DNA from: Actinomycetales bacterium
GTDB taxonomy: Bacteria; Actinomycetota; Actinomycetes; Actinomycetales; Dermatophilaceae
NCBI GenBank assembly: GCA_016711095.1
Contig: JADJTP010000003.1
Span: 273,378 to 337,377 of the forward strand
DNA: 64,000 nucleotides
Reading direction: 5' to 3'
Shown here in pieces: positions 1,731 through 61,618 of the stretch. Both the position numbers and the translations under genes were made by a program. Position 1 is the first letter of the stretch. Each line of letters opens with the position of its first letter. The notes beneath the pieces are model-generated. The model was given only the letters and a program-made list of their open reading frames with translations. It ran no database searches and was not told the DNA's origin.

Positions 1731-2705
1731 TCACCGCGCTCGGACATGCACTCCGCGCGCGGGTATACCGGGCACGAGTCGTCGCCACTGCGACTGCTCA
1801 CCGCCCGCGCTCACCTGCTCCACCCGCGCGTTTGTCGTGAGCACCACGACGCTGGGCCCGGCCCCGGAGATCGCGGCAGCATGGCCCTGCGCTCTGAGCC
1901 GGTCGACCAACGCCATCGAAGCGGCATACGAGGAACGCCGAGCCTGCTGGTGTAGCCAGTCGCGGGTGGCCGGCACGAGCAGGTCGGGTCGGCGGGTCGC
2001 CGCCTCCACAAGCAGCGCAGCGCGAGCCGAGTTCAGTGCCGCCTCTCGCAGTGGCACTCGCTCCGGCAGCAACGCCCGAGCCGTGTGGGTGGCCAGAGTC
2101 GCCTCGGGGACGAAGACGACCGCCGCGAGCTCGGGATGCAGCGCCAGCCCGATGGTCACCGTCGAATCGCCGCGCTCGGCGCCGTCATCGTCGGTCCAGG
2201 AGAGCGTCATCCCGCCGAAGACCGTGGCCGAGGCGTTGTCGGGGTGGCCCTCGAGCTCGCTGGCAAGGTCGTTGATCGCCGGGAGATCGATGGCCAGCTC
2301 GTCCCCAGGCCGGGCCGGCGACCCCGCCGCAGCCCGCCGCGACCATGCCCAAAGTCCTTGTGCCGCAGCCACACCCGCGACGATGGCGGTCGCCGACGAT
2401 CCCATACCGCGGCCGTGCGGGACGGCATTGCGGGTCTGCATGACCAGGCCGGCCGGGACGTCCACGCCGAGCTCGCGCAGCCCTCGGACCATCGAGCGAT
2501 AGACCAGGTGCGACTCGTCGCGAGGGACACCGTCGGCCCCGGAGCCCTCCACCTCAACCACCAGACCGGGTTCAGCGACCACGGTGAAATCCAGCTCGTC
2601 CCACACCCCGAGGGCCAGGCCCATCGAATCGAACCCCGGCCCCAGGTTGGCGCTGCTTGCCGAAGCGCCCACCCGGATCGCTGCGCCGACGGGGACCGCG
2701 GGCAC
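1731..2705 (-). CDS. thrB: homoserine kinase
   Basis: Intact 324-aa ORF with a GTG start. It carries the GHMP kinase signatures SSANLGPGFDSMGLAL and PHGRGMGSSATAIVAG and sits between thrC and rho. Confidence 0.93.
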   Translation of the reverse strand: MPAVPVGAAIRVGASASSANLGPGFDSMGLALGVWDELDFTVVAEPGLVVEVEGSGADGVPRDESHLVYRSMVRGLRELGVDVPAGLVMQTRNAVPHGRGMGSSATAIVAGVAAAQGLWAWSRRAAAGSPARPGDELAIDLPAINDLASELEGHPDNASATVFGGMTLSWTDDDGAERGDSTVTIGLALHPELAAVVFVPEATLATHTARALLPERVPLREAALNSARAALLVEAATRRPDLLVPATRDWLHQQARRSSYAASMALVDRLRAQGHAAAISGAGPSVVVLTTNARVEQVSAGGEQSQWRRLVPGIPARGVHVRAR

Positions 2706-2711
2706 GTGAAC

Positions 2712-3816
2712 TCAGCGCTCCATGCCCAGGGCGACGGCGGCGGCATACGCTTCGGCGGCGATCCGCGTCGGCGCGACCTCGGTGCCGTCGGGACGCTTCA
2801 GGGCCCACTGCGGGTCCTTGAGCCCGTGGCCGGTGACGGTGCACACGATGCGAGCCCCCGCCGGGACCTCGCCGGCCTCAGAACACGCGAGCAGGCCCGC
2901 GACCGAGGCCGCCGACCCTGGCTCGACGAACACCCCCTCCTTGGCCGACAACAACCGATGCGCAGCGAGGATTTGCTCGTCGGTCACGGCGTCGATGCGA
3001 CCGCCCGAGTCGTCGCGAGCGGCGACGGCTTGGGCCCATGAGGCCGGGTTGCCGATCCGGATCGCCGTCGCGATCGTCTCGGGCTCGTCGACCGGGTGGC
3101 CCAGGACGATCGGGCCGCCCCGGCGGCCTGGAATCCCCACATGCGGGGCAGTCGCGTCGCCGGCCCACCGGCCCCTGCCGGCCCCGCGGCCCCTGGCGTG
3201 CCCGCGGCATACTCGCGGTAACCCCGCCAATAGGCGGTGATATTGCCCGCGTTGCCGACCGGCAGACAGTGGATGTCCGGCGCGTCGCCGAGGGCATCGA
3301 CGACCTCGAAGGCCGCCGTCTTCTGCCCCTCGATCCGGGCCGGGTTGACCGAGTTGACCAGCTCGACCGGATAGCTCTCGGCGAGTTTGCGCGCGACGGT
3401 CAGGCAGTCGTCGAAGTTGCCCTCGACCTGCAGCAGGGTCGCCCCGTGGGCGATGGCCTGGCTGAGTTTGCCCATGGCGATCTTGCCGTCGGGCACGAGC
3501 ACAGCGCACGCCATGCCGGCCTTGGTCGCGTATGCCGCGGCGCTGGCACTCGTGTTGCCGGTCGAGGCGCAGATCACCGCCTTCGCGCCGTTCGCCGCGG
3601 CGACCGAGATCGCCGTGGTCATCCCCGGTCCTTGAAGGAGCAGGTGGGGTTGAGTCCCTCGTACTTCAGCCAGACCTCTGCGCCCACCCGCTCGGATAGG
3701 TATTCCGCGGCGATGAGTGGGGTGCCGCCCTCCAGCAGAGTGACGACCGGAGCTCCGGCGAGCATCGGCAGCCGGTCGGCGTATTCGGCGATGACCCCGC
3801 GCCATTGGTGAGCCAT
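2712..3816 (-). pseudogene. thrC: threonine synthase, split into three frames as sequenced (two 1-nt indels)
   Basis: N-terminus [17 protein letters not shown]...[16 protein letters not shown] (ORF 3619..3816). It continues as [32 protein letters not shown]... in the frame of ORF 2984..4027, then as [26 protein letters not shown]...ALGMER in the frame of ORF 2712..3509. The junctions are at the C4 run 3623-3626 (FKDRG|MT needs one more base) and the G3 run 3112-3114 (AAGAA|PIVLG). Confidence 0.9.
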
Positions 3817-3818
3817 GA

Positions 3819-5195
3819 TCAGACACCTTCCACACGCATAACGGAGATGACGCCTCGGACGACCGGCAGAGCGGCGAGCGCTTCGACGGTCGCCGCGAGA
3901 GCCGCATCGGTCGCCGAGTGGGTGACGACGACGAGACTCGCTCGTGCAGCGGCACCACCGTGAGGCGGCAACTGCCGCTGGCGGACGGTCTCGATCGAGA
4001 CGTCGTGTGCCGCGAAGGCGGTCGCAATCTGAGCGAGCACTCCCGGACGATCGGCGACGTCGAGACTGATGTGATAGCGGGTCATTGCCTGGCCCATGTC
4101 GAGTAGGGGCAGGTCGGCGTAAGCGCTCTCGCCGGGCCCGCGCCCGCCGCCGACCTTGTGCCTGGCCACCGCGACGACATCGCCGAGCACGGCGCTTGCT
4201 GTCGGGTCGCCACCGGCTCCCCTGCCGTAGAACATCAGCTGTCCGGCTGCGTCGGCCTCGACGAAGACGGCGTTGAACGCCTCACGGACACTGGCCAGCG
4301 GGTGGCTGCGGGGATCATCGCGGGGTGCACCCGCACCGAGACCCCAGCCGGAGTGCTTCCCGCACCGTCGGACCGTTCGCAGATGGCGAGCAGTTTCACG
4401 ACGCAGTCCATGTCCTTGGCAGCCTGGATATCGGCGGCACTCACCTCGGTGATGCCCTCGCGGTGCACGTCGCGACCCGAGACCCGGGTGTGGAACGCGA
4501 GGCTCGCCAGGATCGCGGCCTTCGCCGCAGCGTCGAACCCCTCGACATCGGCGGTCGGGTCGGCCTCGGCATAGCCGAGGGCCTGGGCCTGGCTGACCGC
4601 ATCGGCGAAGCCCGAGCCGGTCGTGTCCATTTTGTCCAGGACATAGTTGGTCGTCCCGTTGACGATGCCCATGACCTTGCGGACGCTGTCACCGGCGAGA
4701 GACTCGCGCAGCGGGCGCAGCAGTGGGATGGCGCCGGCGACCGCCGCCTCGAAGTAGAGGTCGACTCCGCCCTCGCGCGCCGCGGCATACAGGGGTGGGG
4801 CCGTCCTCGGCGAGCAGCGCCTTGTTGGCGGTGACAACCGAGGCGCCGGCCCGCATGGCCGCCAGGATCAAGGTCCGGGCCGGTTCGATGCCCCCGATGA
4901 CCTCGATGACGACGTCGACCTGGGTGACAAGAGCAGCCGAGTCGGTGGTGAACAGAGCCGGGTCGACGCCGGCCGCCGCGCGATCGCGACCGGCGCGGCG
5001 CACGCCGATGCCCACGAGGTGCAGGGGCCTGCCGACCCGCGCTGCCAGGTCGTCGGCGTGCTCGGTGAGCAGCCGAGCCACGGCCGAGCCCACGACCCCG
5101 CAGCCGAGCAGGCCCACCCGAATCGGCCCGTCGGCGTCGCGCTCGGGCGGCGCGGACCGCTCGGCACGGACGGATTCAGAAACGTCGGTCACCAC
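3819..5195 (-). pseudogene. hom: homoserine dehydrogenase, split into three frames as sequenced
   Basis: N-terminus IRVGLLGCGVVGSAVARLL...ANKALLAEDGP (ORF 4689..5195), then LYAAAREGGVDLYFEAAVAGAIPLL...VRVHPAMIP (ORF 4235..4837), then the ACT-domain end [21 protein letters not shown]...RVEGV (ORF 3819..4235). The junctions are at the G4 runs 4792-4795 and 4310-4313. Confidence 0.9.
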
Positions 5196-6636: not shown

Positions 6637-6639
6637 GCC

Positions 6640-7359
6640 TCACATCCTCTCGGGGGCAGACACCCCAAGCAGGGCCATTCCACGCTCCAAGACGCGCAGT
6701 CCGGCCTGCGATATCAGGACGCGGGTGCGATGGTACGGCTGCACCAGCGCACCGGGGCGGGTCGGGATCGCTGGACAGCTCTGCTCCCACGGCAGGTATG
6801 CCGCGGCGACCGCCGCCAGCGCGCCCACAACACCTGATGCCCGAACCGGGGCATCGAGCCGTCTGGGGGCATCGAGCAATTCGACGACGAGCGCCTGCTC
6901 GAGCGGGTCGGTCAGCCCCGCCGCGACATCCTCGTCCGTGGCCGAGGCCGCATCGAGGCCCAGAGCCCCCGCCTGCCCTGCCAGCCGGACGGCCCGCGCA
7001 TGCCCGAGGCCCGCCGCCGCCCCCCACGCCGACGACGGATCAAGCGGGCCGAGCTCGCCGGCGGGCTTTGGCGGCATACCGGCTCCCAATGCGAGCTCGC
7101 GCAGCGCTGCGGCCACCGCGGCCACGCTCAGGCGTAACTCAAGCAACCCATCCTGTCGGGCAGTCGCCGTGGCGCACCACGGGTGACCCGCGATCCGGTC
7201 GGCGAGCGCGGGTGGGTGAACACCGGCGCGCATCGCCTGTGCACTCACCCAGACCCAGGGAGCTCGGTCGGTGCGCTCCAACGGCGCCGGGGTGCCAGGG
7301 CGGCCACCCAGGGATGCCGCCGCGTCATCGATGGCGTTGGCGATGTCGCGGAGACTCAC
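6640..7359 (-). CDS. ArgS-like protein lacking the catalytic core (ArgS N-terminal-like region plus DALR anticodon-binding domain)
   Basis: About 239 aa from GTG 7359, which overlaps the upstream stop as GTGA. The C-terminus ...LISQAGLRVLERGMALLGVSAPERM matches the near-universal ArgS end. The N-terminal part LERTDRAPWVWVSAQAMRAGVHPPALADRIAGH...LLELRLS resembles the ArgS Add-1 domain. I see no HIGH or KMSK motif, and the protein is less than half the ArgS length. The stop lies 3 nt before the lysA ATG. Confidence 0.75.
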   Translation of the reverse strand: MSLRDIANAIDDAAASLGGRPGTPAPLERTDRAPWVWVSAQAMRAGVHPPALADRIAGHPWCATATARQDGLLELRLSVAAVAAALRELALGAGMPPKPAGELGPLDPSSAWGAAAGLGHARAVRLAGQAGALGLDAASATDEDVAAGLTDPLEQALVVELLDAPRRLDAPVRASGVVGALAAVAAAYLPWEQSCPAIPTRPGALVQPYHRTRVLISQAGLRVLERGMALLGVSAPERM

Positions 7360-7988: not shown

Positions 7989-9018
7989 TCAGCGTTGTTC
8001 CGCGTCGGTGATCGTGCCGACGAGCTCCTCGATCACATCCTCGAGGAAGACCACACCGCTCACCCGGCCGTCCTGCTCCACGACCCGCGCCAGGTGCGAG
8101 CCGGTGCGTTGCATGGTCGCCAACACGTCCTCGATCTCGTCACCGGGACCGACAGTGGCCAGTCGGCGTAGCCGTTTGCGCGGCACTTTCGCCGTCCGTC
8201 GCTCGGAGTCCGCGGCATACAGGACGTCCTTCAGGTGCAGGTAGCCGGCGATCTGGCCGTCCTTGTCGACGAACGGATAGCGGGAGAAGCCGGTCTGGGC
8301 GACGAGTCGCTCGACGTCTTCCGGGGTGGCCCCGCGCACGACCGTCACGAGCCGGTCCGTCGGCACGCACGCGCGGCGCGCGCGAGAACTCCAGGGCCGA
8401 ACGCAGCCCCTGGCGGCCTTGGCCGATGAGCCCCCCGACCGCTCCTCGGCCAGGATGTGACCCACCTCGTCCGGCAGTGAATGCCGAGGCGATCTCGTCC
8501 TTCGGCTCGATCCGGAAGATGAGGCGCACCAAGGATTTCAGCCCCTCCATCACCGCGACCAGCGGACGCAACACCCGCGAGACAAACAGCAGCGCGGGCA
8601 CGAGCAGCAGGGCGGAGCGCTCGGGGCCGGCGAGGGCGAGGTTCTTCGGGATCATCTCGCCGACGACGACGTGCAGATATACGACGATGAATAGCGCGCC
8701 GGCCAGGGCCAGGGCATCCACCCACAAGGCACCCAGCGGCAGGAGGCCCGCGATCGGCAGGAGGATCTCGTGCAGGGCGCTCTCGGCCAGCGCCCCGAGC
8801 CCGACCGAACAGACGGTGATGCCGAGCTGGGCCGTCGCGAGCATCGACCCCATCTGTTCGAGGGCGGCCAGGCAGGTCGCGGCCCGTGCGCTGCCGGCTG
8901 CCGCCAACGGCTCCAGGGCCGAGCGGCGCGCGGCCATCGCCGCGAACTCGGCCCCGACGAAGAACGCATTGCCCATGAGCAAGCCGAGCGAGACCCACAG
9001 CGCCGTGGTGTGACTCAT
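7989..9018 (-). pseudogene. DUF21/CBS-pair (TlyC/CNNM-type 'hemolysin family') membrane protein, about 3 frameshifts as sequenced
   Basis: N-terminus MSHTTALWVSLGLLMGNAFFVGAEFAAMAARRSALE...GEMIPKNLAL...RIEPKDEIASAFTA. The text then alternates between two frames (EVGHILAEERSGG / LIGQGRQGLRSALEFS / ACVPTDRLVTVVRGATPEDV...VFLEDVIEELVGTITDAEQR). The junctions are near 8470-8475, the C6 run 8431-8436 and about 8370-8385. The ATG overlaps the upstream stop as ATGA. Confidence 0.8.
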
Positions 9019-10449: not shown

Positions 10450-10487
10450 GTATGCCGCGCCACGAAATCCGCCCCGAGGCGGCATAC
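10450..10487. repeat. inverted pair of the abundant 9-mer (GTATGCCGC ... GCGGCATAC) in a divergent promoter region
   Basis: GTATGCCGC at 10450-10458 and GCGGCATAC at 10479-10487 are separated by 20 nt. They lie between the tlyC-like start (10369, minus) and the acyl-CoA dehydrogenase start (10498, plus). Confidence 0.8.
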
Positions 10488-10497: not shown

Positions 10498-12438
10498 ATG
10501 TCTGTCATGACGTTGACCAGCCCGCCCACGCCCAGCGACCCCACCCCGACGTCGGCTCCCTCGGCCAGCCCCACCTATGCCGAGTCGCGCCAGGTCGCCG
10601 AGGCCGGCCGGGAGACCGACTGGAAGCTGCCCTCCTTCGGCAAAGAACTCTTCCTCGGCACCTTCCGGCTCGACCTCATCCATCCGCAACCGGTCCCGGA
10701 CCCCGAGGCAGAGGCCGAGGGCGCCGAGTTCCTCGCGCGGGTGCGGGCCTTCCTCGTCGAGCATGTCGACCCTCTGCAGATCGAGCGTGACGCCAAGATC
10801 CCCGACCATGTCATCGAGGGAATGCGCCAGCTCGGTGCCTTCGGCGTGAAGATCGACAAGAGCTACGGCGGCCTCGGGCTCTCGCAGCTGACCTACACCC
10901 GGATGCTTTCCCTCGTCGGCACCTACAACGCTGCCCTCGCCGTGCTGGTGAGCGCTCACCAGTCGATCGGCCTGCCCGAGCCGTTGCGCGGCTTCGGCAC
11001 CGAGGAACAGAAGCAGGCCTGGCTGCCGCGGATGGCACGCGGGGAGATCTCGGCGTTTCTGCTCACCGAGCCAGACGTCGGCTCCGACCCGGCCCGGATG
11101 AGCTCGAGCGCCGTCCCGCTGCCCGACGGCAGCGGCTACGTCCTCAACGGCCAGAAGCTGTGGGCGACCAACGGGACCGTCGCGACCGTCGTCGTGGTCA
11201 TGGCCAAGGTGCCCAAGAGCGAGGGCCACCGCGGTGGGATCACCGCCTTCATCGTGCCGACCGACCTGCCCGGAGTGCGAGTCGTGACCCGAAACGACTT
11301 CATGGGCTTGCGCGGCCTGGAGAACTCCCTCACCGAGTTCGAGAACGTCCACGTGCCCACCGACGCGGTCATCGGTGCCGAAGGCCTGGGCCTGAAGATT
11401 GCCCTGACCACGCTCAACACCGGTCGCCTCGCCGTCCCGACGATGTGCGCGGGGGCCTCGCGGTATGCCCTGAAGATCGCCCGGGAATTCGCGGTGACCC
11501 GCAACCAGTGGGGGAAACCGGTGGGCAAGCACGACGCCGTCGCCCAACGGCTGGCACTCATCGCCGGATCGGTCTTCGCCCTCGAGGCGATCGTCGACGT
11601 CGCGACCAAGCTCGCCGACGACCATCGCAACGACATCCGTATCGAGGCGGCCCTCGCCAAGCTTTTCAGCACGGAACTGGGCTGGGTGGTCATCGACAAC
11701 ATGGTCCAGATCCGCGGCGGGCGCGCCTACGAGACGGCCGAGTCGCTGCTGCGACGTGGTGAGGCTCCGATCCCCGCCGAGCAGCTCCTTCGCGACATGC
11801 GAATCAACCGGATCTTCGAAGGCTCCACCGAGATCATGCACTTGCTCATCGCCCGCGAGGCGGTCGACCAGCACCTGCAGGTCGCCGGTGACCTGCTGAC
11901 AACCCGCAAACCGGCCGAGTTGGCCCGGGCCGGTGCGAAGGCCGGGAAGTTCTACGCCGGGTGGTTCCCTCACCTGGCCACCGGCGAGGGCCAGAACCCC
12001 CGCGCGTATGCCGAGTTCGGCGAGCTCGCGACGCACCTGCGGTTCGTCGAACGCAGTGCCCGCAAGCTAGCCCGCTCGACGTTTTATCTCATGGGCCGTT
12101 ACCAGGGCCGCCTGGAGCAGAAGGGCGCCCTGCTCGCCCGCGTCGTCGACATCGGCGCCGAGCTCTTCGCGATGTCCTGCTCGGTCGTGCGGGCCGACAC
12201 CAAAGGGCGCGTCGAGCGCCCCGAGCACGCCGAGGACGCCGCCCAGCTCGCCGACCTCTTCTGCCGACAGTCCCGCCGCCGCGTCGACGAGCTCTTCCAC
12301 GAGCTGTGGCACAACGACGACGACCTGGCATATGGGGTGGCGATGGACGTGCTGAGCGGGCGGCACCTGTGGTTCGAGGAGGGCATCCTCGATCCGGCCG
12401 ACCCCCACGGCGAGGTGCCCAACCACACGACCGACTGA
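10498..12438 (+). CDS. acyl-CoA dehydrogenase family protein (long, ~646 aa)
   Basis: Intact ORF with IPDHVIEGMRQLGAFGVKIDKSYGGLG, LLTEPDVGSDPARM, QIRGGRAYETAE and IFEGSTEIMHLLIAREA. Confidence 0.88.
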   Translation: MSVMTLTSPPTPSDPTPTSAPSASPTYAESRQVAEAGRETDWKLPSFGKELFLGTFRLDLIHPQPVPDPEAEAEGAEFLARVRAFLVEHVDPLQIERDAKIPDHVIEGMRQLGAFGVKIDKSYGGLGLSQLTYTRMLSLVGTYNAALAVLVSAHQSIGLPEPLRGFGTEEQKQAWLPRMARGEISAFLLTEPDVGSDPARMSSSAVPLPDGSGYVLNGQKLWATNGTVATVVVVMAKVPKSEGHRGGITAFIVPTDLPGVRVVTRNDFMGLRGLENSLTEFENVHVPTDAVIGAEGLGLKIALTTLNTGRLAVPTMCAGASRYALKIAREFAVTRNQWGKPVGKHDAVAQRLALIAGSVFALEAIVDVATKLADDHRNDIRIEAALAKLFSTELGWVVIDNMVQIRGGRAYETAESLLRRGEAPIPAEQLLRDMRINRIFEGSTEIMHLLIAREAVDQHLQVAGDLLTTRKPAELARAGAKAGKFYAGWFPHLATGEGQNPRAYAEFGELATHLRFVERSARKLARSTFYLMGRYQGRLEQKGALLARVVDIGAELFAMSCSVVRADTKGRVERPEHAEDAAQLADLFCRQSRRRVDELFHELWHNDDDLAYGVAMDVLSGRHLWFEEGILDPADPHGEVPNHTTD

Positions 12439-12452
12439 TCGGCGGCATACGA

Positions 12453-12514: not shown

Positions 12515-13378
12515 TCAGCCTTTCACGGCCCCGGAGGTCATGCCGCGGATCATGAAGCGCTGAAGCACCACGAAGACGATCATCGGCACGACGATCGAGA
12601 TGAACGCCCCCGCGGTCAGCAGTTCAGCACCCTGTCCCTGGCTGCCGAGCAGTTGCTGCAGCTTGACGATGACCGTCGTGTTCTCGCTCCTGAGGAAGAG
12701 CTTGGCCACGAGCAGGTCGTTCCACACCCAGAGGAACTGGAGCGTGGCGAACGCCGCGATGGCGGGGATCGACATCGGCGCCACGAGCCTCCAGAAGGTC
12801 TGGAAGTGGCTGCACCCATCGATCTTCGCCGACTCGACGACACTGCGCGGAAGTGTGCTCATGTAGTTGCGCAACGTGTAGATGCACAGCGGCATACCGA
12901 ACCCGGTGTGCAGCAACCACACCGCGATGTACTGCCCGGAGATGCCGAGACCACGCGGGCCCAGGAGGTTGAGCATCGGCTGGAACGCGACCTGGATCGG
13001 CACGACCATGACCGCGATGATGAGCAGGAAGAACAGCTCCTTGAACCGGAACTCCATGAACGTGAACGCGTAGGCGGCGAACGCTGCGAACATGATCGGA
13101 ATGATGGTGGCCGGGATCGCGATGACGAGGCTGTTGATGAACCCCGCCCCGAAGTCCTGCCCCGTCCACGCGCCGGAGTAGTTGCTCGCCGTCCAGTCCG
13201 CCCCGAAGGGGTTGAGCAGGGCGGTCCACCAACCGGAGGAGAGCGCGTCGTCACGGCTACGGAACGACGTGACGAGCAGGCCCAGGGTCGGGACCGTCCA
13301 GAGCAAAGCCACGATCGTCATGACGACAATCGAGAAGGTGCTCCTGGGTCGACCGTCCTTCATCAGTTTGCGGCTCAT
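12515..13378 (-). CDS. carbohydrate ABC transporter permease (MalG/AglG-like)
   Basis: 287 aa from ATG 13378, which overlaps the upstream stop as ATGA. MSRKLMKDGRPRSTFSIVVMTIVALLW..., with the EAA-type loop VVESAKIDGCSHFQTFWRLVAPM. Confidence 0.88.
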   Translation of the reverse strand: MSRKLMKDGRPRSTFSIVVMTIVALLWTVPTLGLLVTSFRSRDDALSSGWWTALLNPFGADWTASNYSGAWTGQDFGAGFINSLVIAIPATIIPIMFAAFAAYAFTFMEFRFKELFFLLIIAVMVVPIQVAFQPMLNLLGPRGLGISGQYIAVWLLHTGFGMPLCIYTLRNYMSTLPRSVVESAKIDGCSHFQTFWRLVAPMSIPAIAAFATLQFLWVWNDLLVAKLFLRSENTTVIVKLQQLLGSQGQGAELLTAGAFISIVVPMIVFVVLQRFMIRGMTSGAVKG

Positions 13379-52406: not shown

Positions 52407-55400
52407 AAGGTCGCCCCTTCGGATTGGGCCGGGCACGAGGTCTTGACCGGGCAGTTCCGGCAGTGCGTGCCTGGCGTCGCCGCGAACCGTGACCCCGCCA
52501 TCCCCTCGGCGGTCCGAGCGATCAGCTCGTGTGCCCAGCGCGGGTCGGGGTCGGCCTCGAGGGCGGGCTGCACTTGGAGGGTGACCGACTTGTTGGCGGC
52601 CTTGCCAACATGCAATAGAGCGGCTCCGCCGCTGTGGACGCCGAACTCGCCGCAGCCGCCCTCGACCACGGCCGCCTGGTAGACCCCGAGCTGGGGGTGG
52701 CGGGCGATGGCCTGGTTGGTTGGTTTGCTCGACCCGGTCTTGTAGTCGAGGACCCGCACCGCCCCACTCGGGTGCCGCTCGAGCCGGTCGAGCTTGCCAG
52801 TCACCGTCGCCCGGCCGATCTGGACGACGATCTTGAGCTCGGCCGCCACGGGCTTCCAGGTCGCGGCCTCGGCCGAGGCGAAGTAGCCGGCGAGCCGGGT
52901 GGCCATCGCGGCCGCCTCTGCCCGCTTTCGGGCATCGACCCAGCCCGGCGGGAGGCCCAACTGGGGCCAGCGGCGCTCGATCTCGACCTGCAGGGTGGGC
53001 GCGTCGACGTCGCCGAGATCGGCGACGACGTCGTGGACGAGGGTGCCGATGGTCGCCGAGTCGCTCTTGAGCCCGTCGCCGCCGCACGCCCGCAACAACC
53101 ACTGCAGGCCGCAGGCGCCGAACTGCTCGACCTTCGAGGGCGAAACCCGAACGCTCTGGCCCTCGGCTCGGCGCGGCCGCTCCACGGGGTCGGGCACGAG
53201 CGCCCACCACGATCCCGGGTCCGCTCCGGGCACACCTTCGTCGGCGAGCCGGGCCAAATGGCGACCGGCCTGCGCAGCGAGCACGCCGTCGGGCGAGGTG
53301 GCGGCCTGGCGCAGAGCGCCGACCAGACCGGCCAGGGTGAGCGCCCGACCGACCTCGGTGAACGGTCGGATGCCGTCGATCGCGTCGGCGCGAGTCGTGA
53401 CCTCGGCGTTCCCGACGGCAGCACCGGCGGGCGGCGGACCGAGCGGATCCACCAGGTCGAGATAGACGGAGGGTTGTTCGTCGTCGCTGCGGACGGCGCA
53501 CATCAACACCCGCTCGCTGGCCCGGGTCAACGCGACGTACAGCAACTTGGTTTCGTCGTAACCGACCGCGGCATGGGCGGCCCGCGCCGACCCGCCGCGA
53601 CCGGTGAGTACATCGACAAGACGCTCCGAGCCCAACAGCGATCCCCGCAGCCGCAGGTCGGGCCACACCCCTTCCTGCACGCCCGCGATGCACACGAACC
53701 GCCACTGGCCCCCGGCCGCGGCGGCGGGGGTGAGCAGGGCGACGGCATCGGTCGACGGGGCGCGCAATGCGAGGGTGTCGCCGGGGACCTCCTCGCTGCG
53801 GATGTGGTCGAGGAAGGCGTCAGGCCCGGATCCGGGAAGCCGGTCGGCATGACGGGCGGCTGCGACGAAGAGGGCGACGACGGCGTCGAGATCCCGATCG
53901 GCGCGAGCCCCGGCGGCGCCGCCGCCCAGGGCGGTGCGCCGCCATGGGTCGGCCAGGCCCAGCGCCGACCAGATGGCCCAGAGCACCGACTCAGCGCTCA
54001 CCCCGGCCGCCCAGCCGTGACCGTCCGGGGCCCGCCGGGCAGCACCGACACCGGCGACGACCGCCCGGGTGATCCTGCGCAGCGGGCCCCCGTCCGGACC
54101 CGACAGCTCGGAGGTGATGGCATCCCCGACGGCCGATGCGAGCAACTCGTCGCTGCTGCGCCGTCCCCCTGCGTCGAGCTCTTGGCGCCGCAGCGCCCGA
54201 CGCAGCCGACGCAGACCTACGGCGTCGGCCCCGCCCAGCGGCGACAGGCACAGGTCGGCGGCTTCTGCCGGGCTGAGCCGCGCCGATGGGTCGACCGCCC
54301 ACCGCAGCGAGAGCTCGAGCAATCCGAGCAACGGCCTGACGGCCACCTCCTCACGGACCGGCAGCTCAACCGCCGGAGCAGCGACCGGCACACCAGAGGC
54401 GGCCAGGACCCGGCGCAATGTCCCGCTGCGTCCGCGGCCGCGGACGACGACCGCCATCTCGCGCCACGGCATACCGTCACGCAGGTGAGCCCTGCGCAGC
54501 GCGGAGGCGACGTATGCCGCCTCCTGGGCTGCCGAGCGCAGCAACGCCACCTCGACGTGGCCACCGTCGCGGGCTGGGGCGGTGCGGCGCTGAGCACCCC
54601 CACCGGTAGCTCCGATCCGGCGGGCTACCTCTGCCGCGGCCGCGTGAAGGACGGCAGGCGTGCGGTATGCCGTGCCGAGCACCACCGTGGGGGCGTCGGC
54701 GAGGGCGGGCCAGAGCGACCACCAGAGCAGCCGAGGATCGGCACCCCGGAAGGTCTGGACCGAGCGGTCGGGGTCGCCGAGCAGAACGACCTGCAGGCCG
54801 GGGTGCGCGATCGTCCGCAGCAACCGGGCAGCCGCCCAGGTGAGTTCCTGGGCGTCGTCGACGACGACGAGACGCACCTGCTCACGAAGCCGGGCGAGCG
54901 CGTCGGGGTCGTCGTCGAGCAGTTCGGCGGCAGCGGTGAGGATCCAGGCTGGGTCGTAGGCGCCGGGCCGCGAGAGGGCGGTGACCTGGTCGTATTCGTC
55001 GAGGACTTCAGCCGCGGCGAACCATTCGGGCCGGCCGTGGACCTGGCCGAGATGGGCCAACTGTTTGGCATCCACACCGTGCTCGACGGCCCGCATAAGC
55101 AGGTCGCGCAGCTCGGCGCGAAAGCCTCTGGTGCCGAGAGCGGCGGACAGTTTCTCGGGCCACAGCGGACCGCCGCCAGATTCCGCATGGCCGGCGAGCA
55201 GATCGCGCAGCACGACGTCCTGCTCGGGACCGCTGAGCAGCAGGGGAGCCGGGTCCCCACGCAGGGCGGCCTCGCGACGCAGGATGGAGAATCCGAAGGC
55301 CTGATGAGTCCGGGCGAGCGGTTCGGTCGACGTACCACCGAGGCGGGCGGTGACTCGCTGACGCAAGGTCGCGGCGGCGGCACGGGTCGGGGCGAGCAGC

Positions 55401-55594
55401 ACGCACTCGTCGGGGGCAAGCCCCACGCGGGTCACCCGGTCGACGACGAACTCGACGGCCAGGGTCGACAGCCCCGAGCCCGGCCCGCCGAGCACCCTGG
55501 CCACCGGCGCCTGCAGGGCGAGGGCAGCGCGCTGCGAGTCATCGAGCGACGGCGCGTCGACGACGAGCGCTGGAGGGCGTCGCAGGGTGAGCAT
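52403..55594 (-). CDS. adnA: helicase-nuclease subunit AdnA (degenerate motor, RecB-type nuclease with Cys cluster)
   Basis: 1063 aa. It has a degenerate P-loop GGPGSGLST, VVDDAQELT, the nuclease TGKLDRLERHPSGAVRVLDYKTG and the terminal CRNCPVKTSCPAQ. It sits upstream of adnB, as in Mtb Rv3202c/Rv3201c. Confidence 0.85.
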   Translation of the reverse strand: MLTLRRPPALVVDAPSLDDSQRAALALQAPVARVLGGPGSGLSTLAVEFVVDRVTRVGLAPDECVLLAPTRAAAATLRQRVTARLGGTSTEPLARTHQAFGFSILRREAALRGDPAPLLLSGPEQDVVLRDLLAGHAESGGGPLWPEKLSAALGTRGFRAELRDLLMRAVEHGVDAKQLAHLGQVHGRPEWFAAAEVLDEYDQVTALSRPGAYDPAWILTAAAELLDDDPDALARLREQVRLVVVDDAQELTWAAARLLRTIAHPGLQVVLLGDPDRSVQTFRGADPRLLWWSLWPALADAPTVVLGTAYRTPAVLHAAAAEVARRIGATGGGAQRRTAPARDGGHVEVALLRSAAQEAAYVASALRRAHLRDGMPWREMAVVVRGRGRSGTLRRVLAASGVPVAAPAVELPVREEVAVRPLLGLLELSLRWAVDPSARLSPAEAADLCLSPLGGADAVGLRRLRRALRRQELDAGGRRSSDELLASAVGDAITSELSGPDGGPLRRITRAVVAGVGAARRAPDGHGWAAGVSAESVLWAIWSALGLADPWRRTALGGGAAGARADRDLDAVVALFVAAARHADRLPGSGPDAFLDHIRSEEVPGDTLALRAPSTDAVALLTPAAAAGGQWRFVCIAGVQEGVWPDLRLRGSLLGSERLVDVLTGRGGSARAAHAAVGYDETKLLYVALTRASERVLMCAVRSDDEQPSVYLDLVDPLGPPPAGAAVGNAEVTTRADAIDGIRPFTEVGRALTLAGLVGALRQAATSPDGVLAAQAGRHLARLADEGVPGADPGSWWALVPDPVERPRRAEGQSVRVSPSKVEQFGACGLQWLLRACGGDGLKSDSATIGTLVHDVVADLGDVDAPTLQVEIERRWPQLGLPPGWVDARKRAEAAAMATRLAGYFASAEAATWKPVAAELKIVVQIGRATVTGKLDRLERHPSGAVRVLDYKTGSSKPTNQAIARHPQLGVYQAAVVEGGCGEFGVHSGGAALLHVGKAANKSVTLQVQPALEADPDPRWAHELIARTAEGMAGSRFAATPGTHCRNCPVKTSCPAQSEGATL

Positions 55595-55643: not shown

Positions 55644-55982
55644 TCAGACCGACGCCACCTCCGGGCGCCCGTGCGGCCCCGGCCACCGGGCTCTCACCAG
55701 GTCGACACGGACATCGCCGGACGGCATACCGATCAGGGGAGTGTTTTCGTCACGGTAGTGCTCGGCGGCCGCTGCGCCGAGCCCCCGTGGTGGCAACCCG
55801 CCGGCCCGCACGACGCGCCACCAGGGCACGTCGGAGCCGTAGCGGCTCATGACCTGGCCCGCCTGCCTCGGCCCCCCTGAACCGACCCAGCGGGCGAGGT
55901 CGCCGTAGGTCGCGACCTGGCCGGGCGGAATCTGCTCGACAAGCTCCAGAACGAGCTCAGCATGCTCGGGCAGCGCATCCAT
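55644..55982 (-). CDS. MGMT-family DNA-binding domain protein (alkyltransferase-like)
   Basis: 112 aa from ATG 55982. It has IPPGQVATYGDLARWVG...PWWRVV and lacks the PCHR active-site Cys motif. This matches the Mtb Rv3204 position. Confidence 0.75.
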   Translation of the reverse strand: MDALPEHAELVLELVEQIPPGQVATYGDLARWVGSGGPRQAGQVMSRYGSDVPWWRVVRAGGLPPRGLGAAAAEHYRDENTPLIGMPSGDVRVDLVRARWPGPHGRPEVASV

Positions 55983-55992: not shown

Positions 55993-57186
55993 TCAATAGG
56001 TTGCCTGGGACGGGTCGACGTCACGCACCCAGGCGAGCACACCACCTTCGAGGTTGGCGGCATACCGCCAGCCGGCAGCCATCGCGTGGCGGGTAGCGTC
56101 CGCAGATCGGATGCCGGTCTTGCAGACGAAGACGAGCGGCTGGGCAGGCGTGCCCAACTCACGGCGAGAGAAGGCGATCCCCGAGCGCAGGTCCGCAAGT
56201 TCGACCGCCACCGAGCCGGGCACCGAGACGATAGCGCGCTCGGGGGCCGAGCGGACGTCGATGACCAGTGGCGGGTGCGGGCGCCGCAGTTCGGCGGCGA
56301 GATCGCGCGCACTGACGCTCGGGACCGGGGGGTGGGTCGCTGAATCCTCCGTCACGGGGATCTGAGCTGGTCCGGCGTGGGCGTCGGCAGCCTGCGCGGA
56401 GAGGGCAGGCATGCCGCACACCGGACACTCGGGGTCAGCCGTGACCGGCAGCGTGTCCCAGCTTTGGCGCAGCCCGTCGTGCACCAACAACCGCCCGATC
56501 AGCGGTTCGCCGATGCCCAGCACAAGCTTGAGCGCCTCGACGGCCTGGATGCAGCCGATCGTCCCGACGAGCGCGCCGAGCACTCCGGCCTCGGCGCACG
56601 AGGGCACCGCGTCGGCTGCTGGTTCGCTGGGGAAGACACAGCGATAGCAGGGCCCGTGGTGGGCCCACCACACCGACACCTGCGCGTCGAAACGCAACAC
56701 CGATGCCCACACGTGCGGAACTCCCGCGCGGGCGCATGCCTCGCCAAGCAGATAGCGCGTCTCGAAGGTGTCGGTTCCGTCGACGACCACGTCGTATGCC
56801 GCGACGAGCCCCGCCGCGCTGTCGTGGGTGACCCGGCCGGCATGCGTTTCCACGCGTACGTCGGGGTTCAGTCGGGCCACGGCTTCGGCCGCGGTCACGA
56901 CCTTGGGCCGTCCGAGATCCGCTGTGCCATAGGCGATCTGGCGTGGCAGGTTGGTGAGGTCGACGGTGTCGTCGTCGGCGATGCCGAGGGTTCCGACACC
57001 GGCGGCCGCCAGATAGAGCAGAGCGGGCGAGCCGAGCCCCCCGGCGCCGACGACCAGGACACGTGCGGCGGCGAGGCGACGCTGGCCGTCGAGGCCGATC
57101 TCGGGCAGCAGCAGGTGGCGGGCATAGCGAGTGCGCTGGGCCGCATCGAGTGTTGTCCTGGCGTCCATTGCTGGCGAGGCTAACAT
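55993..57186 (-). CDS. moeZ: adenylyltransferase/sulfurtransferase MoeZ (ThiF/MoeB domain plus rhodanese)
   Basis: Contains RYARHLLLPEIGLDGQRRLAAARVLVVGAGGLGSPALLYLAAAGVG, CxxC pairs, and the C-terminal rhodanese VCKTGIRS. The start is uncertain: ATG 57186 or ATG 57168. The track ORF start at 57330 is too long. Confidence 0.85.
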   Translation of the reverse strand: MLASPAMDARTTLDAAQRTRYARHLLLPEIGLDGQRRLAAARVLVVGAGGLGSPALLYLAAAGVGTLGIADDDTVDLTNLPRQIAYGTADLGRPKVVTAAEAVARLNPDVRVETHAGRVTHDSAAGLVAAYDVVVDGTDTFETRYLLGEACARAGVPHVWASVLRFDAQVSVWWAHHGPCYRCVFPSEPAADAVPSCAEAGVLGALVGTIGCIQAVEALKLVLGIGEPLIGRLLVHDGLRQSWDTLPVTADPECPVCGMPALSAQAADAHAGPAQIPVTEDSATHPPVPSVSARDLAAELRRPHPPLVIDVRSAPERAIVSVPGSVAVELADLRSGIAFSRRELGTPAQPLVFVCKTGIRSADATRHAMAAGWRYAANLEGGVLAWVRDVDPSQATY

Positions 57187-57284: not shown

Positions 57285-58079
57285 ATGCCGGTGGGCAACG
57301 ACCCGCGACGCCGCGTCGCGGCTGCCGCACCCGGCATACCGAAGGTCTCGACGGCTGCGGCCGTCACGGCCCCCACCACCCCGTCGCGGACGACCGCACC
57401 GATGCCGACCGCGACGACCAGCACCACCTCACGGCCCGCCCGTGGCCAACGCCTGCCCCGCCCTGCTCGGCGCGCCCAGCTGCTGGCCGCCGCGCAGGCC
57501 GCGTTCGTCGAGTCCGGCTACTACGCCGCCGCGATGGACGACATTGCCGCCCGCGCCGGGGTCTCCAAACCCGTTCTCTATCAACATTTCCCCGGCAAAC
57601 TCGAGCTGTATCTCGCCTTGCTCGACGAGCGCGCCAGCGACTTGGTCGTCGCGGTCCGCGCGGCCCTTGACACCTCGACCGATAACAAGGAACGCGTCTT
57701 CGCGACGATCTCGGCCTACTTCGAGTTCGTCGCCCGCGACGGCTCGGCCTATCGGCTGCTGTTCGACAGTGACCTCATCAACGAGGAGGCCGTGAGCAGC
57801 CGGATCGACGAGGCTCTCACCCGCTGCGGCGAGGCCTTCGCCGACCTCATCACGGCCGACACCAAGATGAGCCGAGCCGACGCGATGGTGCTTGCCATGG
57901 CCCTCACCGGGATGGCCCAAGTAGCCGCGCGCAACTGGGCGGTCCTGGACACCACCGTCGGGCGCCAGGAGACGGCCCGCCTGGTCGGGCAGCTCGCCTG
58001 GCGCGGGCTCGGCGGCTTCCCCAAGGTCGCCCGACCCGCCGAAGCGCCAGCCGCCGGGGAACACGCCGCGCCCTCATAG
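57285..58079 (+). CDS. TetR/AcrR family transcriptional regulator
   Basis: HTH MDDIAARAGVSKPVLYQHFPGKLELY, with a P/T-rich N-terminal extension. The start is uncertain (57285 or 57402). This matches the Mtb Rv3208 position. Confidence 0.82.
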   Translation: MPVGNDPRRRVAAAAPGIPKVSTAAAVTAPTTPSRTTAPMPTATTSTTSRPARGQRLPRPARRAQLLAAAQAAFVESGYYAAAMDDIAARAGVSKPVLYQHFPGKLELYLALLDERASDLVVAVRAALDTSTDNKERVFATISAYFEFVARDGSAYRLLFDSDLINEEAVSSRIDEALTRCGEAFADLITADTKMSRADAMVLAMALTGMAQVAARNWAVLDTTVGRQETARLVGQLAWRGLGGFPKVARPAEAPAAGEHAAPS

Positions 58080-58107: not shown

Positions 58108-58139
58108 CGTATGCCGCGTCGCCACCGTCGCGGCATACG
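58108..58139 (+). terminator. hairpin made of an inverted pair of the abundant motif, 29 nt after the TetR stop
   Basis: CGTATGCCGCG (58108-58118) pairs perfectly with CGCGGCATACG (58129-58139) around the 10-nt loop TCGCCACCGT. Confidence 0.6.
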
Positions 58140-59636: not shown

Positions 59637-59898
59637 GGCGCTGACTGTATCGGCGGCATACGGGTTGGCCAATGGGTCCACTCTCCCGAGGCCGACGTGT
59701 CGAGCCGACCGCCGGACCGCCGCCTCACCGTCCGGTAGACTCGCACGCGTACACGGTGCCCGATCGGCCCGAATCGACACCCGCCGAGTGGCTCGGCGAC
59801 CTTCACGAAGACCTCCGATCGGCCCCTCAAGCCGACTTCGGCCGCGCACTTCATCGTGCCGACGGCCGTCGCGGCCCGATCGGAAGCGACCAACACTT

Positions 59899-61558
59899 CA
59901 TGACTCCCTTGGTGCCTCAGAGCATCGAACCCACGTTTGCCGACTTCGGCGTCCACCCTGACATCGTCGCCGCCCTGACCGAGGCCGGGATCGTCCACCC
60001 CTTCCCGATCCAGGCGATGACCTTGCCGGTGGCCCTGGCCGGGCACGACATCATCGGCCAGGCCAAGACCGGTACTGGCAAGACTCTCGGCTTCGGTGTG
60101 CCGATCCTGCAGCGCGTCGTCACCCCGACTGACCCCGGCTACGCCGACCTGGCCAAGCCCGGCAAGCCACAGGCTCTGGCCGTGGCGCCCACCCGTGAGT
60201 TGGCCGTGCAGGTGTCCGGCGACCTCGAGCGCGCCGGCAAGCAGCGCGGCGCCCGGGTGCTCACCGTCTACGGTGGCCGGGCCTATGAGCCGCAGATCGA
60301 GGCCCTCAAGCGAGGCGTCGAGGTCGTCGTCGGCACCCCCGGGCGGCTCATCGACCTGGCGAAGCAGGGCCACCTCGACCTGTCGCAGGCTCGGATGGTC
60401 GTGCTCGACGAGGCCGACGAGATGCTCGACCTCGGCTTCCTGCCCGATGTCGAAACCCTCATGTCGAAAACCCCGTCCGGCCGCCAGACCATGCTTTTTT
60501 CGGCGACCATGCCGGGCGCGATCGTCGCACTGGCCCGGCGCTACATGACTCAGCCGACCCACATCCGGGCGATGGGCGACGAGACCGAGAACGCCCACAC
60601 CGTCAAGGCCATCGAGCAGTTCGTCTATCGGGCCCACGCGATGGACAAGGTCGAGTTGCTCAGCCGGGTGCTGCAAGCCGAGGGACGCGGGCTGTGCCTG
60701 GTCTTCACCCGCACCAAACGCGCCGCCGCGAAGATCACCGAACAACTCACCGAGCGAGGTTTCGCAGCCGCCGCCATCCACGGCGACCTCGGCCAGGGAG
60801 CCCGCGAGCAGGCGCTGCGAGCCTTCCGGCACGGCAACGTCGACGTCCTCGTAGCGACCGACGTCGCTGCCCGCGGTATCGACGTCGAGCACATCACCCA
60901 CGTCATCAACTATCAGTGCCCGGAAGATGAAAAGACGTACGTCCACCGGATCGGGCGGACCGGGCGCGCCGGCAACACCGGCATAGCGATCACCCTCGTC
61001 GACTGGGAAGACATGCCCCGGTGGTCGATGATCGACCGACAGCTGGATCTGGGCATCCCCGAGCCGGTCGAGACCTACTCCTCCTCCGAGCACCTGCACG
61101 CCGACCTCGACATCCCGTCCGGGCTCAAGGGCTATCTCGGCAAGGAGCAGCAGACCCGAGCCGGTCTGGGCGCCGAAGAGCTGGAGGACCTCGGCGAGAC
61201 GGGCCGATCCGGGGGACGTCGGGGCACCTCGGGTCCTGGCAGCCGCGACGGCCGCAGCGATCGAGGGGACCGCTCTGGTGGCGCACGCTCGGGTACGAGC
61301 AATGGCGACGGCACGAGCCAACCGCCCCGCGAGCGCAACCGGCGACGCACCCGTGGCGGCGGCGACGACGGAAGTGGTTCGGCGGTTACCGGCGCGCCCG
61401 TCACCGCCACGAACACCACCCCCTCGCCCGCCCCGACCACTGGCACGGCACCCCGGGACACGCAGACCTTCGACGCCCAGGCCGCCGCTCGCCGCCCGCG
61501 GCGTCGTCGTCGCGGCGGCTCGGGCAGCTCGACCCAGGCGCCCGCCACCTCCATGTGA
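59899..61558 (+). CDS. rhlE: DEAD-box ATP-dependent RNA helicase with Arg/Gly/Ser-rich C-terminal tail
   Basis: It has the Q motif FADFGVHPDIVAALTEAGIVHPFPIQ, AKTGTGKT, VLDEADEM, SAT and HRIGRTGRAG. A 262-nt untranslated region lies upstream. The track ORF start at 59672 is rejected. Confidence 0.9.
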
Positions 61559-61585
61559 CTCCGGCGCAACCCCCGGTCAGCGCCG

Positions 61586-61618
61586 ATCCCGTATGCCGTG
61601 ATCCACGGCATACGGGAT
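61586..61618 (+). terminator. perfect 15-bp hairpin made of an inverted pair of the abundant motif, 28 nt after the rhlE stop
   Basis: ATCCCGTATGCCGTG (61586-61600), loop ATC, then CACGGCATACGGGAT (61604-61618). Confidence 0.7.

Follow-up and report, generated by a model that had tools for sequence, protein, structure and literature searches.

Why should a single short word recur almost once per kilobase along a bacterial chromosome, on both strands, and what could read it? The question is raised by a 64-kb stretch of an actinobacterial genome (Dermatophilaceae; assembly GCA_016711095.1, contig JADJTP010000003.1, positions 273,378 to 337,377 of the forward strand), hereafter the window, in which an exact search finds 60 copies of an asymmetric octamer, 37 of them as CGGCATAC on the plus strand and 23 on the minus strand, where the complement GTATGCCG is read, i.e., 0.94 per kb. 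The window is otherwise ordinary actinobacterial core chromosome, with rho, thrB, thrC, hom, lysA, kgd, the NAD-glutamate dehydrogenase gene (NAD-gdh), gpsA, adnB-adnA, moeZ, mdh and folD. The original prediction, made from the letters of the window, had arrived at the same 37 and 23 copies and listed them by the start of a 9-mer, one less than the start of the octamer; all of its positions agree with the exact search except one complement copy, which begins at 51189 and not at 51190. As an answer we tentatively propose, with a confidence a little short of even, that RCGGCATAC could be a clade-specific self-DNA word of the same kind as the DNA uptake sequences (DUS) of Neisseriaceae and the uptake signal sequences (USS) of Pasteurellaceae, brought close to saturation by the preferential import or integration of the DNA that carries it.

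The form of the word emerges from an alignment of all 60 copies. CGGCATAC ranks second by frequency among the 8-mers of the window and, when preceded by a 5' G, is its most frequent 9-mer; 44 copies have G at position –1 and 11 have A, the same tally as originally given, and positions –2 and +1 have a weak preference for G or C. Outside –2 to +1 the information is near zero and the flanks have the background composition, therefore the unit is a short word of 8-9 bases, (C/G)(G/A)CGGCATAC(C/G), rather than a piece of a longer repeat element. No conserved extension past a short core, of the type found in repetitive extragenic palindromes (REP) or miniature inverted-repeat transposable elements (MITE), was seen in this alignment, and the interiors of the hairpins built on some of the copies vary among loci. 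In addition, an Rfam scan of the window returned a tRNA as its only match and no family matching the copies.

The most economical explanation would be that there is no signal at all and that the word is a by-product of codon, dipeptide or composition preferences, or what remains of a mobile repeat (MITE, REP). A single observation lends itself to this explanation: under a plain composition model other words of codon shape, GTCGACGA for one, seem enriched about 20-fold as well. The plain composition null was dropped as misleading for this reason, and Markov models of orders 4-6 were dropped as well, since in these the sub-words stem mostly from the word itself; two codon-aware nulls were therefore added. 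Dinucleotide shuffles of the window gave 1.22 expected copies with a maximum of 4, and Markov models of orders 1-3 gave 1.1-2.8, against the 60 observed. A synonymous-codon shuffle, which preserves each protein as well as the overall codon usage, gave 2.9 ± 1.6 copies (maximum 9) in 28 confident genes covering 44 kb, against 35 observed, a ratio far from unity. As an empirical null, 58 kgd-centred loci of other high-GC actinobacteria (1.24 Mb) contain the word 20 times, 0.016 per kb or approximately once per 64 kb, whereas word-bearing kgd loci have 147 copies in 182 kb (0.81 per kb), a density gap of about 50-fold between loci of the same coding style. The abundance far above chance that had been claimed for the word thus survives Markov models of orders 1-3, the codon shuffle and the comparison with real actinobacterial DNA.

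How the copies are accommodated in genes speaks in the same sense. The reading frame at each copy was assigned by codon-usage scoring of the six frames, frame calling by GC phase having proved too noisy. In coding DNA the word is read in just four of six possible ways, namely x-Ala-Tyr (.CG GCA TAC), Tyr-Ala-x (TAT GCC G..), Gly/Arg/Cys-Met-Pro (.GT ATG CCG) and Arg-His-Thr (CGG CAT AC.), while the remaining two, which need a Cys or ATA codon, are found essentially only in non-coding or unassigned DNA. The readings assigned in the original prediction are correct by this scoring, and its statement that the word is independent of the reading frame holds in that several frames are used but has to be narrowed to just four of the six. 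With respect to transcription, 23 copies are sense and 31 antisense, with no strand preference, and the word is therefore not an mRNA signal. A codon alignment of kgd orthologues shows that the word sites of this gene are built with the rare codons GGT (Gly), GCA (Ala) and TAT (Tyr), where genera without the word have GGC/GGG, GCC/GCG and TAC at the same residues, and that the copies originate via several different substitutions, amino-acid changes included.

The strongest single test for an action at the DNA level is the saturation of the tripeptides compatible with the word. In the window 44 of 65 such tripeptides (68%) are spelled as the word, and in near and distant word-bearing relatives the proportion is 38-100%, depending on the peptide class, against 29 of 780 (3.7%) in word-free actinobacteria. 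Moreover, compatible tripeptides are themselves about 2-fold commoner in word-bearing genomes, therefore the pressure has shifted amino-acid usage too; uptake sequences are reported to co-evolve with the proteome in the same general way (PMC2817400). Finally, on our gene map about 15 of the 60 copies lie within the approximately 7.7% of the window not assigned to genes, an excess of about 3-fold which bears out the non-coding enrichment noted originally. Rare codons, near-saturation and non-coding enrichment together strongly support the view, already advanced in the original prediction, that the word acts on DNA rather than as a protein motif. An artefact of codon usage, composition or mobile elements is refuted by the rare codons of kgd, the 50-fold gap, the saturation and the codon shuffle; with four reading frames and non-coding DNA in use, flanks that are not conserved and no Rfam match, we give the absence of any signal practically no chance.

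The specificity of the word is very sharp. When word-bearing loci are compared with other actinobacterial loci, the 24 one-mismatch variants taken together occur at the background rate, and only one departs clearly from it, the commonest synonymous precursor CGGCGTAC, with a 4.5-fold depletion. In H. influenzae the over-representation of USS drops 92-fold at one mismatch and in N. gonorrhoeae that of DUS drops 82-fold (PMC1939737); the fall from zero to one mismatch is of the same kind here. A sharp specificity with one depleted precursor would also be in line with repair or conversion tied to methylation, in which a methyltransferase or nickase would read the word and mismatch repair would perfect near-matches. 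Its precedent is the model for HIP1 (GCGATCGC) of cyanobacteria, the function of which is still unknown and for which a repair drive has been proposed (PMC4390886). Like the word, HIP1 is an octamer occurring about once per kb in coding and non-coding DNA, with lineage-specific presence or absence, and the patchiness of the word among close relatives is what would be expected of a gene gained and lost. However, HIP1 is a palindrome with methyltransferase sites whereas the word is asymmetric and its orientation matters, and neither the origin of its copies by several kinds of substitution, amino-acid changes included, nor the alternation of orientations described below is predicted by such repair. 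Very-short-patch repair proceeds from T:G to C:G, and the depleted precursor implies the opposite direction, G-to-A (C-to-T on the other strand). On the gene map no methyltransferase or repair nuclease gene is found within the 64 kb, and we regard this explanation as quite improbable.

The word is not a peculiarity of the window. It is common to many Dermatophilaceae/Intrasporangiaceae, at 0.3-1.3 copies per kb, with some close relatives lacking it, while the other actinobacterial families sampled have essentially no copies in their kgd-centred loci. The highest densities are those of L331 (1.34 copies per kb), L454 (1.3) and L082-L086 (84-88% Kgd identity; 1.1-1.3), followed by L004, an Intrasporangiaceae metagenome-assembled genome (1.04), L006 (0.94), L024, a Lapillicoccus (0.92), L328/L329 from activated sludge (0.88), L003 (0.67), the cultured Knoellia sp. 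p5-6-4 (0.56) and Pedococcus dokdonensis (LT629711.1; 0.52), L005 (0.50) and L009, a Serinicoccus (0.50). The word is weak in L330 (0.29), in L007, an Intrasporangium sp. (0.12), and in L001 (0.09), and there are 0 copies in L002 and in L327 (complete genome CP053707.1). A metagenome scan for the extended hairpin form gave at least 120 loci, from activated sludge and soils, with a median of 0.63 further copies per kb among the matches listed. The core does not vary between lineages, the drift being confined to the preferences at the flanks; no alternative "dialect" words were found in L001, L002 and L007.

Comparison of aligned sites distinguishes upkeep from inheritance. An exact look-up of the mdh protein of the window found no record, but the window species is represented in NCBI by a metagenome-assembled genome: L081 (GCA_049292595.1) has 99.5% identity to the window over 6.1 kb, and all nine word sites are kept in it. 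Of the 43 window sites that could be aligned with near relatives (78% nucleotide identity), 31 are kept exactly, against 19% of control 8-mers from these alignments, and in distant word-bearing lineages 7 of 41 are kept, against 14.5% of control 8-mers. The copies are therefore actively maintained within a lineage, yet have accumulated largely independently across lineages.

A feature absent from the original prediction is the orientation of neighbouring copies. In the window 42 of 59 steps from one copy to the next switch orientation (permutation mean 28.4, P = 0.0002), and 27 of 38 do so where the neighbours are ≥500 bp apart. The same holds for lineages with mostly non-orthologous sites (96 of 138 steps; 65 of 95 at ≥500 bp, P about 0.001) and for 48 metagenome loci, where 264 of 415 neighbours ≥100 bp apart are inverted (P < 0.0003). 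In the latter the inverted fraction decays with distance, from 0.90 at 40-100 bp and 0.81 at 100-200 bp to about 0.7 at 200-750 bp, about 0.58 at 750-1500 bp and about 0.5 beyond 1500 bp. Furthermore, the plus copies of the window are evenly spaced, with a coefficient of variation of 0.58 against 0.97 for random placement (P = 0.0002). Two trivial causes were rejected. A bias in the position of copies within genes, towards 5' or 3' ends, is significant in the window but reversed or absent in L082, L083, L086, L328 and L331; the metagenome loci were found by hairpin-seeded sampling, and the same design applied to true USS in 120 viral contigs, a weak comparator, gave no inverted excess beyond the seed pairs. 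Since neighbours alternate within approximately 1 kb, plus and minus copies are not interchangeable over this distance, which points to a strand-specific reader, and the word is probably read strand-specifically.

A strand-specific word invites comparison with signals that are polar along the replichore, for which a check on strand skew had been proposed. Loci oriented by kgd, all with negative GC skew, divide their copies 124:108 (53:47, P = 0.32), and in 48 independent metagenome loci, each oriented from its own GC skew, the division is 295:268 (52:48, P = 0.27); a Spearman test against GC skew gave a correlation of 0.29 (P = 0.045), and any polarity is thus weak at most. These values bear on a site for a chromosome-handling protein, whether a nucleoid-associated protein, a loader or barrier of SMC type, or a DNA pump of FtsK/SpoIIIE/TraB type. 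The winged-helix domains of the latter read asymmetric 8-bp words directionally, the FtsK orienting polar sequences (KOPS), the SpoIIIE recognition sequences (SRS) and the TraB recognition sequences (TRS), thus the length of the word would match, and its copies are arranged in an orientation-dependent manner. KOPS and SRS, however, are strongly skewed to the terminus, and no strand skew of this type is seen in any of about 60 loci; TRS/clt are clustered direct repeats of plasmids, whereas the word is dispersed and its close pairs are inverted. In addition, it is improbable that organism-level selection, acting on some 4,000 sites, would prevail over codon usage up to 68% saturation. We place a chromosome-protein site marginally below methylation-tied repair in probability, and give it little credence.

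The other signal to be considered is Chi, already mentioned as an alternative in the original prediction. A Chi-like signal without replication polarity would be a word at which a translocating helicase-nuclease (AdnAB or RecBCD), reading one strand, stops degrading; we think this unlikely, but more deserving of attention than either repair or a chromosome protein. Linear incoming DNA or two-ended chromosomal breaks would then need a correctly oriented copy on each side, which would favour dense, even and alternating copies, and word-bearing alleles would gain a conversion advantage. Chi sites, read by RecBCD or AddAB, are asymmetric words of 5-8 nt, over-represented in their hosts and read on one strand, and in E. 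coli linear DNA is protected when it is flanked by inverted Chi sites. An asymmetric octamer with even plus-strand spacing and 67-70% alternation would be natural for a tracking, strand-specific enzyme, and the candidate reader is encoded in the window, as originally stated, by the helicase-nuclease genes adnB-adnA (48990..55594, minus strand). The N-terminal Walker A motif of the window AdnA (55450-55500) is GPGSGLST, with Leu in place of the catalytic lysine, and erosion of this ATPase has been tied to the origin of Chi recognition (PMC5314763).

The case for Chi is weakened at several points. Strand polarity gives it no support, the copies not being co-oriented with replication; the Chi sites that have been characterised favour the leading strand. 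A 50-fold enrichment with 68% saturation is more than the tiny fitness value of a single site could easily produce, and to our knowledge the enrichment of the word, together with its override of codon usage, is far beyond that of any described Chi. No Chi is known for AdnAB, which is regarded as putatively Chi-independent (PMC5314763). Some close relatives are without the word. Loss of the AdnA lysine, considered as a marker of Chi recognition, was rejected as sporadic and uncorrelated with the word: among the window AdnA and 120 homologues about 11 of 121 lack it (having Leu, Ser, Thr or Arg), mostly in close relatives, and the word-rich L454 (1.3 per kb), Knoellia and Pedococcus keep it. The motif by itself suggests that the AdnA ATPase is under relaxed constraint in this clade.

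At short range the preference for opposite orientations becomes almost absolute, 26 of 27 neighbour pairs <80 bp apart being inverted. Below 40 bp the arrangement GTATGCCG..CGGCATAC prevails (12 to 1), mostly in intergenic DNA; at 40-80 bp the commoner arrangement is CGGCATAC..GTATGCCG (10 to 3), pairs of which are located within genes in the window. The intergenic pairs form perfect hairpins, from –31 to –58 kcal/mol with z from –6 to –9, of which the word is the stem base and the interior differs between lineages, for example past the kgd stop in L083 and L003. Two hairpins built on inverted pairs can be followed in the window. Past the 3' end of the TetR gene, the arms 58109..58116 (–) and 58131..58138 (+) close a hairpin at 58108..58139 with an 11-bp stem at its base (–25 kcal/mol); 3' of the DEAD-box helicase gene, 61591..61598 (–) and 61606..61613 (+) lie in a perfect 16-bp hairpin at 61582..61624 (–31.2 kcal/mol, z = –6.4) devoid of a T tail. 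The inverted pairs had been described as terminator-forming: they are indeed perfect hairpins after genes, but hairpins of this class carry no T tail and a canonical terminator scan does not pick them up, and a role in termination may at best be supposed. H. influenzae, too, has close USS pairs at the ends of genes, with two spacing classes that are specific for orientation (PMC7811141).

Taken in its entirety, from the enrichment of about 50-fold to the upkeep within lineages, this pattern is best known from uptake sequences. USS, with the core AAGTGCGGT, are likewise exact short words with a density of about 1 per kb, which occur on either strand and are free of replication bias, and true USS are spaced about 1 kb apart (PMC7811141); they share with the word the sharp fall at one mismatch, the use of peptide-compatible frames with an effect on the proteome, and the non-coding enrichment (PMC7811141, PMC1939737, PMC2346458), as well as close inverted pairs in two orientation-specific spacing classes, hairpins after genes, and a distribution shared by a family with variation among lineages. 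DUS, recognized by the receptor ComP and reported to mark self DNA (PMC3630211), are also hyperabundant, non-palindromic and family-wide with lineage differences, and their inverted pairs form terminator-like hairpins. The comparison with DUS and USS, first made in the original prediction, holds on every sequence-statistical feature tested, i.e., density, orientations, absence of replication polarity, mismatch, hairpins, family distribution and proteome effect.

From these features we infer a bias in uptake or recombination, a reader protein and competence itself. In the mechanism that we propose for a DUS/USS-like word, some component of the pathway importing homologous DNA would read the exact word, either at DNA binding and import in natural transformation or when the incoming single strand is handled just afterwards, and word-bearing fragments and alleles would enter or recombine more often than word-free ones. 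A mutation creating a copy would be over-transmitted by molecular drive and one destroying a copy would be replaced, so that the word would gradually fill nearly every position tolerated by the proteins, through rare codons and even a shifted amino-acid usage. It would also fill non-coding DNA, where inverted pairs would double as the stem bases of the hairpins after genes. The size of the effect would favour drive, as a transmission advantage per site, over organism-level selection, because one more copy among thousands could hardly outweigh codon optimality, and for uptake sequences a drive from biased DNA uptake has been deemed enough to account for their build-up and fairly regular spacing (PMC7811141, citing Maughan et al. 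2010; PMC1939737). Natural transformation has been reported in the same order, in Micrococcus luteus with Flp/Tad pili (PMC4322843), which makes the idea of competence biologically plausible.

Several observations weigh against such a reading or set the word apart from DUS and USS. The preference of neighbours for the opposite orientation, which extends to about 1 kb, is at odds with the known uptake receptors, which are orientation-blind (PMC1939737), and is a misfit for any plain receptor of that kind; true USS in 120 viral contigs have no such preference, although these contigs, made up of redundant prophages with co-oriented genes, are a weak comparator. With 8-9 bp the word is shorter than DUS (10-12 bp), it has no clear dialects, and it is without the flanking AT-rich tracts of USS; its sequence is unrelated to that of USS and its host belongs to another phylum, monoderm and with about 70% GC. 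A type IV minor pilin of ComP type is not expected in these bacteria, and the receptor would be new. No competence or pilus gene is present on the gene map of the 64-kb window.

Because known uptake receptors are orientation-blind whereas the word alternates, we keep the DUS/USS-like reading somewhat below an even chance, with a strand-specific step as its likely twist. Plus and minus copies would each be of use to a different strand or direction, and a second copy in an orientation already present would add nothing; since neighbours less than about 1 kb apart avoid a common orientation, the reader is probably strand-specific. It could act on imported single-stranded DNA, be a tracking enzyme, or take part in pairing or templated copying within single-stranded stretches. 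A bolder version, which we consider possible but rather doubtful, is that the word is the first sequence-specific self-DNA signal for genetic exchange in the Gram-positive Actinomycetota with a mechanism unlike that of DUS and USS. Its reader would be a tracking enzyme, or would recognize the word in single-stranded DNA, and plus and minus copies would belong to different strands, which would account for the alternation of neighbours; the word would then represent a new class of orientation-sensitive drive element between uptake sequence and Chi.

In the exchange of genes among bacteria, recognition of self DNA by its sequence has been documented chiefly in two families of proteobacteria. No prior description of the word together with the relevant taxa, or of uptake sequences in Actinobacteria/Actinomycetota, was found in the open-access literature, in agreement with the original prediction, which knew of no such element in this phylum; as a lone query the word is of little use, its matches being swamped by Illumina adapter sequences. 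What appears to be new is thus an uptake- or self-recognition-like word in a new phylum, of unrelated sequence, with a rule of orientation that has no described counterpart in the classical systems. If the proposal is true, this would be a third independent case, in high-GC Gram-positives, and self tags would be a recurrent outcome of import or recombination machinery; natural transformation, or another form of homologous exchange, would be active in an ecologically important group that is not known to be competent and includes wastewater phosphate-accumulating relatives and soil Dermatophilaceae. The alternation of orientations is a new constraint on any mechanism and could bring to light a strand-specific step that went unnoticed in the classical systems. 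In practice, the word would offer a handle for genetics, by its addition to constructs, and a marker separating native from acquired DNA, and the cultured carriers Pedococcus dokdonensis and Knoellia sp. make the question directly testable.

The individual copies are given below with the coordinates of the octamer in the window, its strand in brackets, and the lineages in which the site is kept where such conservation was seen. At the left end, 1922..1929 (+) in thrB, a minus-strand gene, is read as Tyr-Ala-Ala, as are 2741..2748 (+) in the 3' part of thrC and 3205..3212 (+) in the same gene, while 3530..3537 (–), also in thrC, is read as Ala-Ala-Tyr; 4783..4790 (+) falls in a stretch of hom with a broken reading frame and is kept in L086. 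Both thrC and hom (2712-5195) are broken up between two or three reading frames, with a change of frame near 3100, 4235 and 4760 in their matches to Pfam PALP and Homoserine_dh, and the CNNM genes at 8140-10376 also appear frame-broken; these breaks may be long-read indel errors or real pseudogenes. A hypothetical gene adjoining lysA contains 6796..6803 (–), Ala-Ala-Tyr, kept in L082, L083 and L086; the coding status of 7072..7079 (+) is uncertain, and 8213..8220 (+) lies in a CNNM gene as Tyr-Ala-Ala, kept in L082, L083, L086 and L024. The tRNA gene matched by Rfam (RF00005, 58 bits) is at 7890-7960, between a response-regulator gene and the CNNM genes.

Between divergent genes, 10450..10457 (–) and 10480..10487 (+) are the left and right arms of an intergenic inverted pair. 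The acyl-CoA dehydrogenase gene carries 12006..12013 (–), Tyr-Ala-Glu, and 5 nt past its stop is the non-coding copy 12443..12450 (+). There follows at 12515-15911 a sugar ABC transporter operon of lower GC, missing from the syntenic loci of L082, L083 and L086, which is probably a recent insertion: the copy-free stretch 12890-16358 has a GC of 0.643 against 0.695 for the whole window. The insert has 1 word copy in 3.4 kb, 12890..12897 (+), read as Gly-Met-Pro in an ABC permease gene, and as one insert it is the sole look at acquired DNA. An ABC ATPase gene contains 16358..16365 (+), Ala-Ala-Tyr, and 17943..17950 (+) is non-coding, 7 nt past the stop of an ABC-2 permease gene, and kept in L082 and L086.

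In kgd, 19916..19923 (–) is read as Gly-Met-Pro, GGT ATG CCG with the rare GGT, and is common to L004, L009, L024, L083 and L086; 20848..20855 (+), Arg-His-Thr, is lineage-specific; and 21195..21202 (–), Tyr-Ala-Ala with the rare TAT, is common to L024 and L086. Directly after kgd, both in the window species and in L081, stands a beta-CASP/RMMBL (RNase J-like) gene (22095-23567), where relatives have an acyl-CoA dehydrogenase gene or nothing; its four copies in 1.5 kb make two inverted pairs, 22105..22112 (+), Ala-Ala-Tyr, with 22153..22160 (–), Arg-Met-Pro, and 22771..22778 (+), Ala-Ala-Tyr, with 22828..22835 (–), Gly-Met-Pro. The 6.1 kb common to the window and L081 contain no indels. A further inverted pair, kept in L082, L083 and L086, is found in a GDSL lipase gene, with 24097..24104 (+), Thr-Ala-Tyr, and 24163..24170 (–), Cys-Met-Pro. 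The 3' part of a PadR-family gene has 26115..26122 (–), Gly-Met-Pro, and an unannotated open reading frame on the minus strand has 26846..26853 (+), Tyr-Ala-Ala.

The pdtaS kinase gene contains 28617..28624 (–), Arg-His-Thr, kept in L082, L083 and L086. The NAD-glutamate dehydrogenase gene (gdh) carries four copies: 29492..29499 (+), Tyr-Ala-Val, and 31994..32001 (+), Tyr-Ala-Gly, both kept in near relatives, 32474..32481 (+), Tyr-Ala-Glu, kept in L083 and L086, and 33141..33148 (–), Ala-Ala-Tyr, kept in L086. In L331 (15893-22314; GCA_037046615.1) pdtaS and NAD-gdh are called in several pieces, owing to frameshifts or an assembly artefact. Further on are 35972..35979 (+) in an aldehyde dehydrogenase gene, Tyr-Ala-Ala, and, in the 5' and 3' parts of an MFS transporter gene, 39448..39455 (+), Ala-Ala-Tyr, and 40762..40769 (+), Thr-Ala-Tyr. 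The following region of about 600 bp (40878-41485) has an ambiguous coding signal and no Pfam match on either strand, and it includes the copies 40944..40951 (–) and 41450..41457 (+). Thioesterase genes hold 41611..41618 (+), Tyr-Ala-Val, in a minus-strand gene, 43642..43649 (+), Ala-Ala-Tyr, and 43850..43857 (–), Tyr-Ala-Ala, while 43004..43011 (–) is at the junction of two acyl-CoA thioesterase genes. A short-chain dehydrogenase/reductase (SDR) gene has 44002..44009 (+) upstream or at its start and 44678..44685 (–) inside, as Tyr-Ala-Ala.

In nudC the copies are 46532..46539 (+), Tyr-Ala-Ala, and 47133..47140 (–), Ala-Ala-Tyr, and 47525..47532 (+) is in the start region of an APH-family kinase gene. 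Three copies are in adnB, 49655..49662 (+) and 51950..51957 (+), both Tyr-Ala-Ala, and 51189..51196 (–), Ala-Ala-Tyr; in adnA, 54467..54474 (+), Gly-Met-Pro, forms an inverted pair with 54512..54519 (–), Ala-Ala-Tyr, and 54665..54672 (–) is read as Thr-Ala-Tyr. The non-coding copy 55722..55729 (+) lies between the adnA start and the moeZ stop, moeZ contains 56058..56065 (+), Tyr-Ala-Ala, in its 3' part and 56794..56801 (–), Ala-Ala-Tyr, and 57332..57339 (+) is at the moeZ start or in the divergent intergenic region. Besides the arms of the two hairpins located above, the last copy is 59654..59661 (+), in the divergent intergenic region between a MiaE-like gene and the DEAD-box helicase gene.

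Some observations were made outside the word-bearing chromosomes. The extended hairpin form had 0 matches in the IMG/VR viral contigs, which may be due to a sparse sampling of phages from these hosts, and scans of viral contigs for inverted pairs gave only chance matches of mixed GC; neither outcome bears on the phages of these hosts. Hairpin pairs of true Pasteurellaceae USS, by contrast, are common in IMG/VR viral contigs, with at least 120 loci and 0.52 USS per kb among the matches listed. Lastly, L011 (Kineosporia mesophila) has over-represented 8-mers of its own, GAAGGCTC occurring 13 times in 23 kb and AAGGCTCG, AGCCACCT and GGTAGCCA 9-10 times each in the same 23 kb, where <0.5 would be expected from other actinobacteria, and these may belong to a different repeat or word system.

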